A stretch of 30,311 bases of DNA from IMG/VR virus record IMGVR_UViG_2778261541_000010, positions 1 through 30,311 of that record, one strand, 5' to 3'. Position 1 is the first letter of the stretch. Every line of letters starts with the position of its first letter. Positions 11,219-19,751 of the stretch are shown here, in pieces. Both the position numbers and the translations under genes were made by a program. Under the pieces are notes generated by a model. The model saw only the letters and a program-made list of their open reading frames with translations, did not search any database and was not told the origin of the DNA. This stretch comes from a virus. Taxonomy: Duplodnaviria > Heunggongvirae > Uroviricota > Caudoviricetes.

Positions 11219-11492
11219 CCTGCAACTTGCCGTCAAAGGTGAATACTTCGATGCCATGATTCGCGGGGAGAAAACGGAAGAGTATCGCCTGTGTAATGAC
11301 TACTGGAATAAGCGAATTATGTTCCGGGAGTATGACCGCCTGATTATCACAAAGGGATATCCGAAGCGCGACGATTCCAGCCGCAGAATTGACGTCCCGT
11401 ATGACGGATATGAAATCAAGACAATCACACATCCGCACTTCGGCGATAAACCGGTAAATGTGTTCGCGATAAAGGTAAATATTGATGGCTAA
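11211..11492 (+). CDS. Hypothetical protein, possibly ASCH/PUA-like fold
   Basis: 93-aa ORF (GTG start) overlapping the upstream stop; weak resemblance to ASCH-domain phage proteins. Confidence 0.4.
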   Translation: MANLQLAVKGEYFDAMIRGEKTEEYRLCNDYWNKRIMFREYDRLIITKGYPKRDDSSRRIDVPYDGYEIKTITHPHFGDKPVNVFAIKVNIDG

Positions 11493-11823
11493 ATCAGCAG
11501 CAGAGCGCAAAGCCGCTCAGAGAGCCAGACAAGCTGCATCTGGTGTGCGTAAGCTGGAAATTGTGCTTGATGCTCAGGAAATTGAAATGCTGGAGCGTAA
11601 CTGTGCCACGCGTCGCCCCGGGCGTGCGCCTTACGAATTTGGTGAGTATATAGCGTTACTGATCCGCCAGGATGATGCACGCGTGCGCGGGCGTATAAAA
11701 TCGATCAGCAGAAAACGTTGCGGTAAGTGCGGCGAGAGAGTTCCAGTTAATTCATGCCCGTGTAATGGTGACTCGCAATGCTGGGTGACCAAAGGCTGGC
11801 ATGAAACGAAATTAATAGTGTGA
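11485..11823 (+). CDS. Putative ribbon-helix-helix DNA-binding protein with C-terminal Cys-rich zinc-ribbon motif; candidate late-gene regulator
   Basis: RKLEIVLDAQEIEMLERN (beta-strand then helix, RHH-like) and CGKCG...CPCNGDSQC; last regulator-like gene before the terminase block. Confidence 0.45.
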   Translation: MAKSAAERKAAQRARQAASGVRKLEIVLDAQEIEMLERNCATRRPGRAPYEFGEYIALLIRQDDARVRGRIKSISRKRCGKCGERVPVNSCPCNGDSQCWVTKGWHETKLIV

Positions 11824-11840
11824 CATGTCACGAAGGTGTT

Positions 11841-12053
11841 ATGCCAAAAATACGCTACGACCTTGAAGATATGAGAGATAACTCAGCAAATTTTCCGAAA
11901 GAGGTTAAATTTCTCATGCATAAGTATGGTTGCGCCAGGAGGGATATAGTTATCGACAGTCAGCACCCTTGCGGCGAGGATGTAATTTTCATTCGCGGTA
12001 AATGGGAAGGGTATCTTGACGAGAGTTTTTACGATGAATTTGATGGACTTTGA
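11841..12053 (+). CDS. Hypothetical small protein (70 aa)
   Basis: ATG at 11841 with GAAGGTG RBS; the track ORF begins earlier inside a palindrome; followed by an intrinsic terminator. Confidence 0.4.
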   Translation: MPKIRYDLEDMRDNSANFPKEVKFLMHKYGCARRDIVIDSQHPCGEDVIFIRGKWEGYLDESFYDEFDGL

Positions 12054-12058
12054 ATACT

Positions 12059-12084
12059 GCCGCCAACTATGGCGGCTTTATTTT
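12059..12084 (+). terminator. Intrinsic terminator between the early/accessory region and the terminase genes
   Basis: GCCGCC-AACTAT-GGCGGC followed by TTTATTTT. Confidence 0.7.
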
Positions 12085-12095
12085 GCATGGTACTA

Positions 12096-12110
12096 TTACC
12101 ACAACGGTAA
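12096..12110. promoter_or_regulatory. Operator: TTACCACAACGGTAA, immediately upstream of the small terminase start
   Basis: Perfect palindrome; a degenerate overlapping repeat follows at 12114-12128 (TTACCACGGTGGTTA). Confidence 0.6.
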
Positions 12111-12127
12111 CTATTACCACGGTGGTT

Positions 12128-12724
12128 ATGATGCCTGCTGAACCTAAAACCTATAAACGCAAATCAACGCAATTTAAGCCACTAACAGCAATGCAGGAGG
12201 CTTATTGCCAGTCATACATCAAAACGCCTGAAAACCAGACTCAGGCAGCGATTAACGCAGGATTCTCCCCAAATACAGCGGCAGTTAAAGCCAGTGTCAT
12301 GATGCGCGATGAACGCATTCAAAAACGGATTGCCGAGCTGATGGAGGAGCGCAACAAACGAATGCGCGTCAGTGCTGATTACGTTCTCATGCGTCTGGTG
12401 GAGATCGACCAGATGGACGTGATCGACATCCTCAACGACGATGGGAGCCTTAAGCCAATCCGCGAGTGGCCGAAAATTTGGCGCACTACGCTTAGTGGCT
12501 TTGATCTGTCATCGACCATCATGAACATGAACGAGGATTCGATAGAGACAATCCTCAAAAAAATTAAATGGCCTGATAAGGTGAAGAACCTCGAACTGAT
12601 TGGTAAGCACGTCGACGTCAACGCATTCAAAGAACGCCTGGATGTTAATGTGAATGTGACAATTGCTGATCGCATAGCGGCAGCCAGGAAGAGACTGAAA
12701 GAACGTCAGGATGGCAATCAGTGA
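12128..12724 (+). CDS. Terminase small subunit
   Basis: TAMQEAYCQSYIKTPENQTQAAINAGFSP matches the HTH of phage small terminases; start trimmed to ATG 12128 (track start 12050 runs through a terminator and repeats). Confidence 0.7.
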   Translation: MMPAEPKTYKRKSTQFKPLTAMQEAYCQSYIKTPENQTQAAINAGFSPNTAAVKASVMMRDERIQKRIAELMEERNKRMRVSADYVLMRLVEIDQMDVIDILNDDGSLKPIREWPKIWRTTLSGFDLSSTIMNMNEDSIETILKKIKWPDKVKNLELIGKHVDVNAFKERLDVNVNVTIADRIAAARKRLKERQDGNQ

Positions 12725-14196
12725 CAGATACAGCGTTATCTCCTGAAGAGCAGTTAATCGAGGATATTGCAGGGTTCACTCACGATCCGCTTGGCTATGC
12801 CCTCTATGCGTTCCCGTGGGGGGAAGAGGGGACTGAACTGGCACATGCTACCGGCCCACGTCAGTGGCAGGCCGATGCGTTCCGAGAGATACGTGATCAC
12901 CTGCAGAATCCCGAGACGCGCTATCAGCCGCTTATGCTGGCACGTGCTTCGGGTCACGGTATTGGTAAATCAGCACTCATCTCAATGTTGATCAACTGGG
13001 GCATGTCCACTTGCGAGGATTGTAAGGTCGTGGTGACCGCCAACACCGACAACCAGCTACGAACGAAGACCTGGCCGGAAATTATCAAGTGGTCAAACCT
13101 TGCTATCACGAAAGACTGGTTTACCTGTACCGCTACCGCGATGTACAGCAATGACCCTGGGCACGACAAGCGGTGGCGAGCTGACGCAATCCCATGGTCT
13201 GAGCACAACACTGAGGCATTCGCCGGACTACACAACGAGCGCAAACGCATCATCGTGGTATTCGATGAAGCGTCGAACATTGCCGATCTGGTGTGGGAGG
13301 TAACAGAGGGTGCGCTGACGGACGAAGACACCGAAATCATCTGGGTGGCGTTCGGAAACCCGACTCGTAATACCGGACGTTTCCGTGAATGTTTCCGCAA
13401 GTATAAACACCGCTGGAAAACTGCGCAGATTGACAGTCGGACGGTGGAAGGTACCAACAAACAGCAGTTGCAGAAATGGGTTGATGACTACGGGGAAGAC
13501 AGCGACTTCGTTAAAATCCGTGTGCGTGGCATATTCCCTGATGCATCTGAATTGCAGTTTATCCCTACCGGTCTTACTGACGAGGCAATGAAACGGGTGG
13601 TAACCGCTGCGCAGGTTGCACATGCTCCGGTGATAATCGGCGTTGACCCGGCATACTCCGGTGTTGATGACGCTGTGATATACCTGCGGCAGGGGCTACA
13701 CAGTAAGGTGCTGTGGACTGGCAACAAGACTACCGACGATCTGATTATGGCGAAGCGTATCGCTGACTTTGAAGACCAGTATCAGGCTGACGCGGTGTTC
13801 ATCGACTTCGGTTACGGAACCGGTTTGAAGTCAATCGGTGACGGCTGGGGTCGTACATGGCAACTTGTTCCGTTCGGTGGCGCGTCTACTGACCCGCAGA
13901 TGCTCAACAAGCGTGGGGAGATGTTCAACTCATGCAAGACATGGCTGAGGCTCGGCGGCATGCTGGATGACCAAGAAACAGCGGACGACCTGTCGACGGC
14001 AGAGTACAAAGTTCGCGTGGACGGTAAAATCGTTATCGAACCGAAGGAAGATATCAAGGAGCGACTTGGGCGTTCGCCGGGGAAAGGCGATGCGCTATTG
14101 CTGACGTTTGCTTTCCCGGTCTCGAAACGCATAAATATACCAGGACAGCAAAGCCAGCAGGGAAGGGCCATAACGGATTATGACCCTTATGCTTAA
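12721..14196 (+). CDS. Terminase large subunit (ATPase/nuclease)
   Basis: Walker A-like ASGHGIGKS, Walker B-like IIVVFDEAS, C-terminal nuclease-like region; overlaps small-subunit stop. Confidence 0.85.
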   Translation: MTDTALSPEEQLIEDIAGFTHDPLGYALYAFPWGEEGTELAHATGPRQWQADAFREIRDHLQNPETRYQPLMLARASGHGIGKSALISMLINWGMSTCEDCKVVVTANTDNQLRTKTWPEIIKWSNLAITKDWFTCTATAMYSNDPGHDKRWRADAIPWSEHNTEAFAGLHNERKRIIVVFDEASNIADLVWEVTEGALTDEDTEIIWVAFGNPTRNTGRFRECFRKYKHRWKTAQIDSRTVEGTNKQQLQKWVDDYGEDSDFVKIRVRGIFPDASELQFIPTGLTDEAMKRVVTAAQVAHAPVIIGVDPAYSGVDDAVIYLRQGLHSKVLWTGNKTTDDLIMAKRIADFEDQYQADAVFIDFGYGTGLKSIGDGWGRTWQLVPFGGASTDPQMLNKRGEMFNSCKTWLRLGGMLDDQETADDLSTAEYKVRVDGKIVIEPKEDIKERLGRSPGKGDALLLTFAFPVSKRINIPGQQSQQGRAITDYDPYA

Positions 14197-14237
14197 TCCG
14201 CTGGTGGGGATAATACTGCTGATATCCTCTGGTGAGG

Positions 14238-14266
14238 ATAAAACAAAGCCAGCTCATCGGCTGGCT
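14238..14266. terminator. Terminator between convergent terminase large subunit and the moron gene (strong on minus strand, weak on plus)
   Basis: AGCCAGC-TCATCG-GCTGGCT; minus-strand reading is followed by TTGTTTTAT, plus-strand by GTTTGT. Confidence 0.6.
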
Positions 14267-14286
14267 GTTTGTGACATGTCACGGTG

Positions 14287-14667
14287 TTATTGCTCGCTTA
14301 ACTTCTGCTTCAGCAAGTAACCTTCGAGCATCCAGATTTTGTTTACAGCATTCTGCCGGGCAATCTTCCGACCAATTTCTGCATCAAAATTTTCCGGGCT
14401 TGCACAGGCACTCTCTCCGGTGACGGTGAAGCCATTCTTCAGCACCAGTACGCAGAAAGTGAGCAACTTCAATGGTGATAAATCACGATCGCCTTCTTCT
14501 GGTTTTTCTCTGCCACAATATTCGTTGCTGGAAATGGCACCATTTCGTCCATCATAAGCAGTAAAGTAATGCTCGCTTTTAATCACATCTTCGATGTGCT
14601 GCGGGGTGATTCGCGGTGCCGTTTTGCCTTTCTCAACGATTTCTTTTTCGATTTGCTGGTCGTTCAT
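14287..14667 (-). CDS. Reverse-oriented moron gene, likely DUF1398 (YbcV/YdfO-like) family
   Basis: 126-aa ORF on the opposite strand to all flanking structural genes; AAGGTGAG RBS; intrinsic terminators on both sides; family assignment from memory of YbcV/YdfO-like prophage proteins. Confidence 0.5.
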   Translation of the reverse strand: MNDQQIEKEIVEKGKTAPRITPQHIEDVIKSEHYFTAYDGRNGAISSNEYCGREKPEEGDRDLSPLKLLTFCVLVLKNGFTVTGESACASPENFDAEIGRKIARQNAVNKIWMLEGYLLKQKLSEQ

Positions 14668-14678
14668 AATCTCACCTT

Positions 14679-14702
14679 AAAAAAATGCCCGGTTCGCCGG
14701 GC
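14679..14702 (-). terminator. Intrinsic terminator directly upstream of the moron gene RBS (minus strand)
   Basis: Minus-strand GCCCGG-CGAA-CCGGGC followed by ATTTTTTT, then AAGGTGAG and the ATG. Confidence 0.65.
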
Positions 14703-14780
14703 GAACTGGAAGCAATGAGTTATGCCTTCCGTGGCTGTACTGGTTTACAGCATGAAGTCATCGCAATGGCGTCCTGCTGT

Positions 14781-14822
14781 AAAAAGGGCGGTGATAGTCC
14801 TTCAAGGGAAACCATCACCGCC
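14781..14822 (-). terminator. Terminator downstream of tRNA-Arg (minus strand)
   Basis: 9-bp stem GGCGGTGAT/ATCACCGCC with structured loop, followed on the minus strand by CTTTTTAC. Confidence 0.55.
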
Positions 14823-14865
14823 AAGCACCTGGAACTTCTGGCATCACGGTCCTTAGGCGTGATTC

Positions 14866-14942
14866 TGGCGTGGCATGCAGGATTCGAACCTGCGACCAAC
14901 CGCTTAGAAGGCGGTTGCTCTGTCCGACTGAGCTAATGCCAC
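14866..14942 (-). tRNA. tRNA-Arg (anticodon UCU), phage-encoded, with encoded CCA
   Basis: Reverse complement folds as a 77-nt cloverleaf: acceptor GTGGCAT/ATGCCAC, D-arm GCTC-AGTCGGACA-GAGC, anticodon arm ACCGC-CTTCTAA-GCGGT (anticodon TCT), T-arm GCAGG-TTCGAAT-CCTGC, discriminator G, CCA. Confidence 0.9.
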
Positions 14943-19313: not shown

Positions 19314-19751
19314 ATGATCACCGACAAACTGTTGATGTTCTCCGAAGCACAGGCGGTAACTGATACCGCGGCTTCTACTGACGTAATCGATCTAGGTCCA
19401 ATTGATGGAAATCGTCGCGATATCGGCGTGGGTTACCCGCTTGAGTTTTGGGCGCTGGTTAACGAAGCCGCCACGGCAAGTGGTGAGGCAACTGTAAACA
19501 TCCAGTTGCAGACGAGTGAGAATAACAGCTCATGGTCCACTATTTATGATAGTGGCGCACTGGCAAAGGCTACCCTGACAGCAGGTAAACGAGTTGTTTC
19601 TGCAAAGGTGCCTGCCGGTGTTCAGCGATATCTGCGTGTTAACTACTCCGTCGCAACTGGCCCACTAACGGCCGGCAAATTCACTGCGGGTATTAGTCTG
19701 GATGTTGATGCCAATACACCGTACCCGATCCGCTCAAAATTAACTGGTTAA
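19314..19751 (+). CDS. Putative capsid decoration/cement protein
   Basis: 145-aa Ala/Thr/Gly-rich ORF directly after the capsid gene, GGAGAAAG RBS. Confidence 0.4.
   Translation: MITDKLLMFSEAQAVTDTAASTDVIDLGPIDGNRRDIGVGYPLEFWALVNEAATASGEATVNIQLQTSENNSSWSTIYDSGALAKATLTAGKRVVSAKVPAGVQRYLRVNYSVATGPLTAGKFTAGISLDVDANTPYPIRSKLTG

Follow-up and report, generated by a model that had tools for sequence, protein, structure and literature searches.

The window, i.e. the whole analysed stretch of 30,311 nucleotides, is an epsilon15/phiV10-type (Uetakevirus) E. coli prophage that carries the 12-bp palindrome GTGACATGTCAC in two exact copies and no others (S1 and S2, Table 1). S1 lies at the end of a gene for a 112-aa protein, hereafter the regulator, and S2 behind the terminase genes. 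The preliminary description had the first copy running across the stop codon of this 113-codon open reading frame, which is correct; the start codon of the next gene that it also placed there is only a mechanical GTG at 11820, the plausible start being an ATG behind GAAGG at 11841. The 70-aa ORF opened by this ATG is a variable insert of which phiV10 retains little and epsilon15 nothing. Further downstream, the ATG at either 12128 or 12131 is likely the true start of terS, and the operator-like site just ahead of it has a counterpart annotated as repressor-binding in epsilon15. The second copy does follow terL and its terminator, as had been described, and it is conserved in epsilon15, phiV10, SPN1S, Tyrion and loci L093, L101 and L105. 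At least seven alternative cassettes directly adjoin S2 in close relatives, several of them with TAA-CACC beside it, and the Gp49/Sf6 gene-66 family gene of the window is one of these.

Table 1. Features at and around the two palindrome copies of the window
Feature	Position	Strand	Remark
Regulator gene (112-aa RHH-like, Cys-rich protein; proposed palindrome binder)	11485..11823	+	
S1, GTGACATGTCAC	11820..11831		Regulator TGA stop (11821-11823) inside
Flank GGTGTTAT at S1	11835..11842	+	Gives SD-like GAAGGTG and the AT of the next ORF's ATG
70-aa ORF, phrog_1541	11841..12053	+	Variable insert between S1 and terminator
Intrinsic terminator closing the early-right transcription unit	12059..12085	+	Homologous to epsilon15 terminator 39646-39672
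Two prophage-repressor-type operator-like sites, ATTACCACAACGGTAAC and ATTACCACGGTGGTTAT	12095..12129		Just upstream of likely terS start
terS-terL transcription unit	12128..14196	+	Between S1 and S2; terL stop at 14196
Bidirectional terminator hairpin	14238..14270 (stem 14247-14266)		Stronger T-run on minus strand
S2, GTGACATGTCAC	14271..14282		Between terminator and stop codon of convergent minus-strand gene
Flank GGTGTTAT at S2	14283..14290	-	Minus strand 14283-14289: TAA stop (14287-14289), then CACC
Gp49/Sf6 gene-66 family gene	14287..14667	-	Adjoins S2

The two copies were said to bracket the terminase genes, and for the window this holds, but the picture is incomplete: every complete relative examined possesses a third copy (S3) where the structural operon ends, 17 kb away from the terminase genes, and in the E. 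coli prophage L241 (97.8% identical) it lies ~300 bp beyond the point where the window ends. The three sites are located at the 3' ends of the early-right, terminase and structural units, each beside an intrinsic terminator and each upstream of the next repressor-controlled unit (repressor-type operators at 12095 and 15264).

Occurrence and conservation of the palindrome

Dinucleotide-preserving shuffles of the window yielded 0.01 expected exact copies of the palindrome, and none of 100 shuffles reached two, so that the possibility raised in the preliminary description of a motif that is frequent by chance does not apply. These counts were restricted to exact copies since the three copies obtained with two mismatches allowed were not above chance. 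The full motif is Y-GTGAC-NN-GTCAC-R, 14 bp overall, in which two inverted GTGAC half-sites are separated by a spacer fixed at 2 bp. Approximately 1 Mb of phage and prophage DNA with a regulator homologue contained 63 copies where ~1 would be expected, and 38 copies were found in 571 kb of 31 species-representative prophage loci (0.54 expected), 28 of the 31 loci having at least one. When the spacer of GTGAC-Nk-GTCAC was varied from 0 to 8 bp in two datasets (436 kb and 571 kb), a spacer of 2 gave 25 and 38 copies, and every other length only 0-1 (a spacer of 3 gave 1 and 0, respectively). Permuted palindromes used as a control occurred 0-4 times, and no copy was found in lambda and P22, both of which are devoid of a regulator homologue. 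The shuffles together with the spacer and permutation controls rule out a chance origin. Furthermore, position -1 was a pyrimidine in all 128 half-sites although this was no part of how sites were selected, and among 64 sites the centre was degenerate while the outer bases were fixed.

Conservation in closely related phages is equally strict. In epsilon15, SPN1S, Tyrion and prophage L241, the last nearly identical to the window, three copies stand unchanged at corresponding positions, and phiV10 has the same three with a single mismatch in the first, at an overall DNA identity of ~80% among these phages. Across the loci compared, the palindrome was 100% invariant at S1 (13 loci), S2 (7 loci) and S3 (5 loci), compared to 0-30% in the flanks. 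This also concerns the sequence GGTGTTAT, which had been regarded as a conserved flank of the element: it does accompany both copies (directly at S2, behind an extra GAA at S1), but it is lineage-specific and missing in epsilon15 and SPN1S. At S1 it is found only in relatives with the 70-aa ORF, and at S2 it consists of the TAA and CACC of interchangeable minus-strand genes, relatives having GGTGTTA in several distinct cassette genes. For these reasons the flank was not counted with the element. When viral contigs were scanned for the palindrome plus GGTGTTAT, those with a match were all of Uetakevirus-like size (<=~46 kb, with one of 71 kb), many of them identical to contigs already found via the regulator.

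Protein and site occur together in phages whose virion and terminase modules are unrelated, i.e. Uetakevirus, ZF40, N15/phiKO2, P2-like Yersinia prophages, and Vibrio, Shewanella and Pseudomonas siphoviruses. ZF40, N15, phiKO2 and Vibrio K233 carry three copies each, as do the uetakeviruses, and copies are likewise present in phages of Shewanella and the P. fluorescens group. A copy placed on the regulator's TGA stop in identical register was observed in 12 of the 31 diverse prophage loci and also in N15, phiKO2, epsilon15, SPN1S, Tyrion and the P. fluorescens-group phage L249; in Pseudomonas, two phage lineages have such a copy. P. putida-type phages, whose homologue is ~29% identical, contain no GTGAC sites at all and instead 4-6 (C)GTTAC-NN-GTAAC(G) sites per 20 kb, exclusively with a spacer of 2 and against an expectation of 0.009; the TGA stop of the regulator itself coincides there with a hybrid, GTGAC-AG-GTAAC. 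The half-site hence follows the lineage of the protein. In the Pseudomonas terS gene the central dinucleotide has changed non-synonymously (R to C) with both half-sites kept. The association is not universal: Aeromonas phage 85AhydR10PP has a regulator homologue and no recognisable motif, the same is true for three of the 31 loci, and the Yersinia P2-like and Shewanella genomes have a homologue with no site beside the gene. In E. coli, the 4.6-kb region was covered to at least 80% in 373 of 5426 complete genomes. The repressor, IHF, RNase III, integrase and terminator sites marked in the epsilon15 RefSeq record do not include the motif, nor was it found in the literature searched.

The regulator protein

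The regulator is a homologue of epsilon15 gp49, phiV10 p55 and N15 gp46 (phrog_536) and belongs to a family of ~150 clusters at 50% identity; a four-sequence alignment served to scan genomes for it. Its AlphaFold model, calculated as a monomer (pLDDT 91), displays a ribbon-helix-helix (RHH)-like fold with the beta-alpha-alpha arrangement and N-terminal strand typical of this class, together with a Cys-rich C-terminal module that is probably zinc-binding. The N-terminal helix is conserved and basic (ERKxxQRxR), and the dyad symmetry of the site is compatible with a dimer of the protein. Pfam has no family for the 112-aa protein, only two to three of 58 family members returned marginal RHH_5, RHH_1 or RepB matches, and the CopG-like YbfE match in NCBIfam (E 0.05) was below the cut-off. 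A fold search of BFVD recovered only a fragment of the same protein, and PHROG and Pfam scans of genes neighbouring the sites and of longer fused homologues provided no functional lead.

Discussion

The enrichment of the motif, its fixed spacer, the stop-codon register and the switch to GTTAC point to a likely recognition site and not to a packaging signal. Most likely, Y-GTGAC-NN-GTCAC-R is recognised by the 112-aa protein encoded immediately upstream, and to this explanation we assign a probability of roughly 0.7. The preliminary description had proposed a second dispersed operator-like site, possibly for the adjacent RHH protein, and this suggestion gains support from the co-occurrence, the stop-codon linkage and the lineage-dependent half-site; the link between protein and site is a correlative one. 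The analysis established the motif statistics, the linkage of gene and site, their covariation between lineages and the predicted fold, and we infer binding, dimer geometry and a transcriptional effect. A regulator dimer would sit on the dyad in the manner of RHH proteins, with the basic N-terminal helix and the ribbon region reading the outer half-sites and the central 2 bp left free to vary. Since the gene's stop codon contains one of the sites, gene and site would be inherited as one unit through mosaic recombination; the remaining sites are dispersed over the phage genome.

The consequence for transcription is our preferred, weakly supported reading. The regulator would be made last from the early operon and then act on RNA polymerase crossing unit boundaries. 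It might be a roadblock or insulator that holds back read-through and convergent transcription of morons, or else a Q-like switch for read-through. Consistent with this, 23 of 61 unique sites were located within 40 bp of a strictly predicted terminator, compared to 5.7% of positions (p ~1e-13), and the genes that precede the late genes end with the regulator in Uetakevirus, Vibrio K233 and Pseudomonas phages, a terminator separating it from the late genes in Uetakevirus and Pseudomonas phages. On the other hand, the proximity to terminators may reflect that non-coding DNA of phages lies at operon ends, and many sites are found in coding regions far from promoters and terminators, e.g. in repA of N15/phiKO2, in gp08 and cII-like genes of ZF40, and in terS, terL, portal and connector genes of Pseudomonas phages. 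Moreover, N15 and ZF40 have a Q-like gene as well, and the window does not retain the -35/-10-like arrangement that epsilon15 shows at S1.

The same pair of protein and site might instead serve an architectural role, as a phage analogue of MatP/matS marking dispersed sites of the genome in order to bridge or condense phage DNA, to position it, or to exclude host SMC (MukBEF-type) complexes or other factors; we regard this as possible but rather unlikely. The matS site (GTGAC-RNY-GTCAC, PMC6907758) has identical half-sites in the same inverted orientation, with one spacer base as the sole difference from the phage motif, and both have a degenerate centre between fixed outer bases. MatP consists of a four-helix bundle, an RHH domain and a C-terminal coiled coil and reads DNA by its RHH dimer plus a preceding helical element (PMC12756933), an arrangement mirrored by the presumed phage dimer with its preceding basic helix. 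The phage sites also resemble matS in being dispersed, at 3-8 per genome (three in Uetakevirus, ZF40, N15 and K233; 4-6 per 20 kb in the Pseudomonas phages), many of them intragenic. However, the 13-bp matS site GTGACRNYGTCAC has a 3-bp spacer, which none of the 63 phage sites shares, all having one of 2 bp, and one phage lineage has switched to GTTAC. There is also no detectable sequence homology between the two proteins: the family profile aligned with E. coli MatP (sequence verified against PDB 4d8j) at an hhalign probability of 1% (E 0.05), over the RHH helices only, and Pfam MatP domains were detected neither in the window protein nor in 58 family members. The regulator is devoid of most of the four-helix bundle and of the coiled coil, and has the Cys-rich module instead. 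Further, its family is present in Pseudomonas phages too, and Pseudomonas is not known to have a MatP. In Uetakevirus, finally, all three sites are found at the ends of transcription units.

A recombination linker at module boundaries, with no binding function of its own and akin to the recombination-related site considered in the preliminary description, would account for the coincidence of palindrome sites with mosaic junctions, given that alignment breaks off right behind the palindrome, at S1, S2 and S3 as well as in P2-like prophages, and that so many different cassettes abut S2. Such junctions are nevertheless expected wherever selection holds a sequence constant, and a passive linker is not expected to keep a strict 2-bp spacer and the outer Y/R in 128 of 128 half-sites, to hold fixed positions within coding regions or to change its half-site with the protein lineage, which makes this explanation improbable.

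We give still less credence to a host protein as reader of the sites. The half-sites do equal those of matS (PMC6907758), but the spacing of 2 instead of 3 bp is unfit for MatP and a spacer of 3 is not enriched. The motif also includes TGTGA-N4-TCAC, which resembles the half-sites of CRP. The CRP consensus is TGTGA-N6-TCACA, i.e. with 6 bp between GTGA and TCAC where the phage motif has 4, and both proteins were ruled out by the wrong spacing. A host factor would also not explain why lambda and P22 lack the motif and why it is confined to DNA with the phage gene, or why the switch to GTTAC in Pseudomonas phages tracks the protein lineage and not the host.

An RNA element that shapes transcript 3' ends, be it an RNase site or a small hairpin working together with nearby terminators, seems very improbable as well. 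Along the terminated transcript, each Uetakevirus copy has a stop codon on one side and a terminator on the other, and in the window the flank GGUGUUAU is able to pair with GUGACAU via G-U pairs. The palindrome alone, however, would form just a 4-bp stem with a 4-nt loop (fold z-score at S1 -1.3), and its copies are found in coding regions and on either side of terminators. There was no compensatory half-site change in 64 sites, down to ~30% protein identity, which argues for sequence-specific reading rather than structure; covariation is lacking here because the half-sites did not vary at all. Rfam contains no family for the palindrome, and only tRNA was found.

The packaging site considered in the preliminary description, a pac-like or terminase-related element, deserves almost no weight: although the two copies of the window flank terS-terL, a copy precedes terS by ~30 bp in the Vibrio and Shewanella phages and the database records of phiV10 and Tyrion open inside S1, there are three copies per Uetakevirus genome instead of one unique site in or next to terS (the third at the end of the structural operon), the motif occurs with the unrelated terminase families lambda-type Nu1/A (cos phage N15), P2 GpP/GpM-type (P2-like) and Terminase_4-type (Pseudomonas, Shewanella), N15 and ZF40 have no copy near the terminase genes, and the Pseudomonas phages also have copies far off or intragenic. 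For phiV10 and Tyrion, the record break falls on the stop codon of the last gene by annotation convention, and it was rejected as a physical genome end.

Uetakeviruses, among them epsilon15, phiV10 and the SPN1S/SPC32H group, serve as model and typing phages and are frequent as prophages of E. coli and Salmonella. The analysis defines an uncharacterised protein family, its probable 14-bp site, a natural switch in specificity from GTGAC to GTTAC and an unusual linkage of gene and site via the stop codon. Control of read-through at operon ends by the sites would explain the insulation or coupling of late units, and a matS-like action would make them the first case of such genome marking in a phage. 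The sites are also the exact junctions at which cargo cassettes are exchanged beside the terminase genes.

Comparison with known systems

Among phage and plasmid RHH repressors (P22 Arc/Mnt, CopG, AmrZ, TraM and the ParD/TacA antitoxins), the regulator stands apart in being outside the Pfam RHH families and in having an additional N-terminal basic helix and a C-terminal Cys-rich domain. Its sites lie on its own stop codon, at operon ends and within genes instead of at its own promoter, and each is a single 12-14 bp dyad in place of the tandem subsites of these repressors.

With Q-type antiterminators (Q-lambda, Q82 and Q21, acting at PR'-tR') the regulator shares the position as last early gene, ahead of a terminator and the late genes in Uetakevirus and Pseudomonas phages and similarly placed in Vibrio K233, and a DNA site immediately after the gene. 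In epsilon15 this site even supplies a -35-like GTGACA 17 bp before TAAATT, just ahead of the terminator. The promoter-like pair at S1 is, however, restricted to epsilon15, further sites are far from any late promoter, and N15 and ZF40, where this layout is absent, possess a Q-like gene in addition. The regulator had no Pfam, NCBIfam or PDB sequence match to Q-lambda, Q82 or Q21.

Centromere modules (ParB/parS and the RHH binders ParG and omega) similarly combine a DNA binder linked to one cis site with others that are dispersed, as for the par sites of N15/phiKO2, but the regulator gene has no partner ATPase linked to it and the majority of its carriers are prophages that integrate. The annotated phiKO2 par sites, GTGCGACCACGGTCGCAC, are of another sequence, and an identity of the palindrome with the phiKO2/N15 par sites or with prophage repressor operators was rejected as the sequences differ.

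Residues 48-111 of the regulator, a long helix followed by a CxxC...C module, align weakly with TraR and YbiI of the DksA/TraR group (marginal PDB profile matches at E 0.02-0.03). The zinc finger of that group is CxxC-x17-CxxC after a long helix, whereas the Cys spacing of the regulator differs, with the fourth Cys placed otherwise, and the tip of its helix, being connected to the RHH, is not free. There was no match to Pfam zf-dskA_traR in 58 members, and a relation would be marginal at most. The regulator and its sites could conceivably, though we hold it doubtful, constitute a widespread phage counterpart of MatP/matS that organises or insulates phage DNA, or a new DNA-tethered RNA polymerase factor at terminators, rather than an ordinary promoter-proximal repressor.

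Results

The preliminary description reported two copies of a 12-bp palindrome, GTGACATGTCAC, and both were found as exact copies where they had been placed (S1 and S2 in the table), against a chance expectation of 0.01 copies in dinucleotide-preserving shuffles, none of which (0/100) reached two. With two mismatches allowed, the window count was not above chance. The first copy contains the stop codon of a 113-codon ORF and the second lies behind terL and its terminator, both as described. The flank GGTGTTAT, which had been called conserved, is indeed present beside both copies (preceded by an extra GAA at S1) but is not conserved in epsilon15 or SPN1S. A start of the next gene inside S1 was not upheld, since GTG 11820 is only a mechanical start and the ORF most plausibly begins at an ATG behind GAAGG.

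Features around the palindrome copies, in window order
Feature	Position	Strand	Remark
S1	11820-11831		at the end of the regulator gene
TGA stop of 113-codon ORF	11821-11823	+	inside S1
Flank GGTGTTAT, first	11835-11842
ATG of variable 70-aa ORF	11841	+	behind GAAGG
Terminator	12059-12085
Two repressor-type operators	12095-12129		before terS-terL
terL stop	14196	+
Terminator hairpin	14247-14266
S2	14271-14282
Flank GGTGTTAT, second	14283-14290
TAA stop of convergent gene	14287-14289	-	Gp49/Sf6 gene-66 family
83-aa ORF (phrog_4647)	14685-14936	+	overlaps tRNA-Arg on opposite strand
tRNA-Arg (anticodon TCT)	14866-14942	-	variable minus-strand region between S2 and portal operon
Operator	15264		before portal operon

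E. coli prophages and phages of the epsilon15/phiV10 group (Uetakevirus) match a 4.6-kb region at 96-98% identity, and 373 of 5426 complete E. coli genomes contain at least 80% of it. Position 101 of the window aligns 100 bases into the integrase gene of L241, a 97.8% identical prophage integrated beside guaA, so the window begins at the integrase end of the prophage. The copies bracket the terminase genes in the window, as first described, but relatives have three: in each of epsilon15, SPN1S, Tyrion and L241 the exact 12-mer lies on the stop codon of the ORF homologue (epsilon15 gp49, phiV10 p55), after terL (directly behind its terminator except in Tyrion, where an additional minus-strand gene intervenes) and, as S3, between the last gene of the long structural operon and its terminator, which follows at once. 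Judging from L241, S3 would fall about 300 bp past the window end. In phiV10 the second and third copies are exact and the first is GTGACATGTTAC, with one mismatch. The motif scan of related phages proposed earlier thus found conservation at three equivalent positions, with all 12 bases invariant in diverse relatives and flanking columns only 0-30% invariant; the sole variant among 80 close relatives, GTGACGTGTCAC, keeps both half-sites. SPN1S has a further GTGACATGTCAT (26722, one mismatch) at the end of the Rz gene, i.e. of the lysis unit, which may be a degenerate fourth site. The GenBank records of phiV10 and Tyrion are linearised within S1 (between GTGA and CATGTTAC, and between GTGACA and TGTCAC, respectively), and linear scans miss this copy because the record ends cut it. 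We rejected the break as a meaningful end, as it was simply set after the stop codon of the last gene.

The 113-codon ORF encodes a 112-aa protein (MAKS...LIV; hereafter the regulator) of phrog_536, a small family (154 clusters at 50% identity in a set of 1.84 billion representatives), without a sequence match in Pfam, NCBIfam or PDB. A confident AlphaFold2 model (58 diverse homologues, pLDDT 91.3) has a basic N-terminal helix (residues 5-19), an extended segment (20-29), helices at 30-42 and 52-75, and a Cys-rich stretch (76-99) followed by a last helix. Two cysteines, C79 and C82, never vary and C99 hardly does, in keeping with a putative zinc site. In a PDB profile search, residues 48-111 matched TraR and YbiI only marginally (E ~0.02), with no Pfam support; the two are DksA/TraR-type RNA-polymerase-binding zinc-finger proteins, and the weak likeness concerns the long helix and Cys module.

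Phages with virion and terminase modules unrelated to those of Uetakeviruses also carry homologues of the regulator. Pectobacterium myovirus ZF40 (67% identity) has three exact GTGACATGTCAC copies, one 3 bp past the homologue stop and two within other genes, while N15 and phiKO2 (35%) each have three GTGAC-(TG/CA)-GTCAC in the same places: one overlapping the TGA stop of the homologue in the register of the window, one in the leader of the antirepressor locus and one within repA. Vibrio phage K233 (31%) contains three GTGAC-(AC/GC)-GTCAC, one 30 bp upstream of terS. Distant homologues accompany two sites in a Shewanella phage (one 28 bp upstream of terS) and two in a P. fluorescens-group phage (one on the homologue's TGA stop). 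Among 31 prophage loci from a species-level scan (one genome per species, homologues 40-80% identical to ZF40 gp22), the 571 kb covered contain 38 copies of GTGAC-NN-GTCAC where 0.54 would be expected, with at least one copy in 28 loci and a site on the regulator's TGA stop in identical register (G-TGA-CATGTCAC) in 12.

Among spacers of 0-8 bp between GTGAC and GTCAC only 2 bp was enriched (25 and 38 copies; 0-1 for all others), and permuted palindromes gave 0-4 copies. The motif is absent from lambda and P22, which have no homologue, and from 10 kb of E. coli chromosome next to L241. A de novo census of 5-Nk-5 palindromes placed GTGAC-N2 among the top motifs of the complete epsilon15, SPN1S, ZF40, N15 and K233 genomes, ranks shared with known repressor operators and par sites, and outside them in phiV10 and Tyrion (first copy split by the record start), Yen42.18 and an Aeromonas phage. 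The base before the half-site is a pyrimidine in 128/128 cases (64 unique sites), which the search did not demand; the motif proper is accordingly Y-GTGAC-NN-GTCAC-R, and its central dinucleotide is AT in 48 of the 64.

P. putida-type siphoviruses (homologue ~29% identity) lack the GTGAC motif and instead have 4-6 copies of (C)GTTAC-NN-GTAAC(G) per 20 kb, where 0.009 are expected, with a 2-bp spacer only. A hybrid GTGAC-AG-GTAAC holds the homologue's own TGA stop in the register seen elsewhere. At one site within terS, close relatives differ in the central dinucleotide (Arg to Cys) with unchanged half-sites. The GTGAC and GTTAC half-sites are mutually exclusive between lineages, and the choice does not depend on the host, as shown by GTGAC in the P. 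fluorescens-group phage. The Pseudomonas phages L244-L247 have, in addition to GTTAC-NN-GTAAC sites, 11-bp GTGAC-N-GTCAC palindromes (e.g. L245 6784 and 12297) at 2-3 per 20 kb against 0.02 expected.

Repressor sites annotated in epsilon15 precede the terminase, portal and tail-fibre units, the same logic as in the window, and the three palindromes thus mark the 3' ends of successive transcription units. Of 61 unique sites across all loci, 23 are no more than 40 bp from a strictly predicted terminator, compared to 5.7% of positions (p ~1e-13); many sites are intragenic in N15/phiKO2, the ZF40 group and Pseudomonas phages. Sites are also mosaic junctions, with alignment lost right after the palindrome. 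Cassette exchange has a hot spot at S2, where at least seven unrelated sequences adjoin the palindrome from window position 14283 onward in 97-100% identical relatives (L007-L086), and several of these share a minus-strand opening, TAA-CACC. P2-like Yersinia prophages have a conserved block, made up of terminator, near-site, 21 bp and site, which stops exactly at the palindrome.

Several further observations concern these surroundings. Repressor-type operators (ATTACC-N5-GGTAAT, at most one mismatch; window 6010, 6072, 6784, 9097, 9159, 12095, 12113, 15264) are present not only in the immunity region but also just upstream of the terminase and portal units, so that these late units appear to be under direct prophage-repressor control. 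The mechanical terS start, TTG 12050 (likewise in the phiV10 annotation), crosses an intrinsic terminator and two operator-like sites (12050-12131); the comparison with epsilon15 points to ATG 12128 or 12131 as the probable true start. The phrog_4647 ORF may be mis-called in phage annotations because it overlaps the tRNA. The regulator homologue of ZF40 (12444-14941) comes after two methyltransferase genes and overlaps the end of one of them, which encodes a 717-aa DNA methyltransferase; the other phages show no such linkage. In L093 (10336-10400), L101, L106 and L089-L091 the regulator is directly followed by a promoter-like sequence with a perfect LexA box (TACTGT-N8-ACAGTA) overlapping it; in the first three S1 lies between gene and promoter, which suggests an SOS-controlled gene adjoining the site. 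P2-like Yersinia/Serratia prophages (L006 11675-11719; L114-L117) carry a near-copy (GTGACATGGCAC or similar) and a perfect copy 33 bp apart, a layout typical of cooperative operators, and L006 and L116 an additional GTGACA half-site downstream.

Discussion

The palindrome is predicted to be the recognition site of the adjacent RHH-zinc protein, with a probability of roughly 0.7. The co-occurrence of motif and protein, the controls and the half-site covariation make the regulator the best candidate for the factor reading the motif. The DNA-binding factor of the preliminary description, possibly the RHH protein, thereby gains a candidate on correlative grounds. The architecture, in which one copy of a 5-N2-5 dyad coincides with the stop codon of the gene, is old. 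Motif variants were absent from the literature searched, unrelated primer sequences aside; a recent Uetakevirus regulatory study covers repressor, antirepressor and integrase only, and the epsilon15 record does not include this motif among its annotated repressor, IHF, RNase III, integrase and terminator sites.

The bound regulator might act on transcription across operon boundaries, either as a roadblock or insulator or as a Q-like read-through switch. This would agree with the association of sites with terminators and with the regulator's place at the end of the early genes, ahead of the late genes, in three phage groups (with an intervening terminator in two), whereas intragenic sites and the Q-like genes of N15 and ZF40 argue against it. 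In epsilon15, S1 offers a -35-like GTGACA with TAAATT 17 bp later, but this promoter-like arrangement is lost in the window. A hypothetical architectural, MatP/matS-like role of the putative regulator-site pair would account for the dispersed and intragenic sites and for the site's form. Packaging, as suggested earlier, RNA structure, a host factor and a passive linker all fit the data poorly.

The E. coli MatP site is GTGACRNYGTCAC (PMC6907758); its half-sites and their orientation are identical to those of the phage site but lie one base pair further apart. In MatP, the central RHH serves both dimerisation and matS contact, and an N-terminal helical bundle also touches DNA (PMC12756933). K233 has, at 19491, a single 13-bp GTGACACCGTCAC that matches the host matS consensus and is the only spacer-3 site across the 1 Mb examined. 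We rejected membership of the regulator in the MatP family, since its profile has no significant homology to MatP (probability 1%), the 3-bp spacing of matS is not enriched in the phages and the regulator family reaches phages of Pseudomonas, a genus not known to have MatP. The likeness to matS is therefore one of site construction and probably of the mode of reading.
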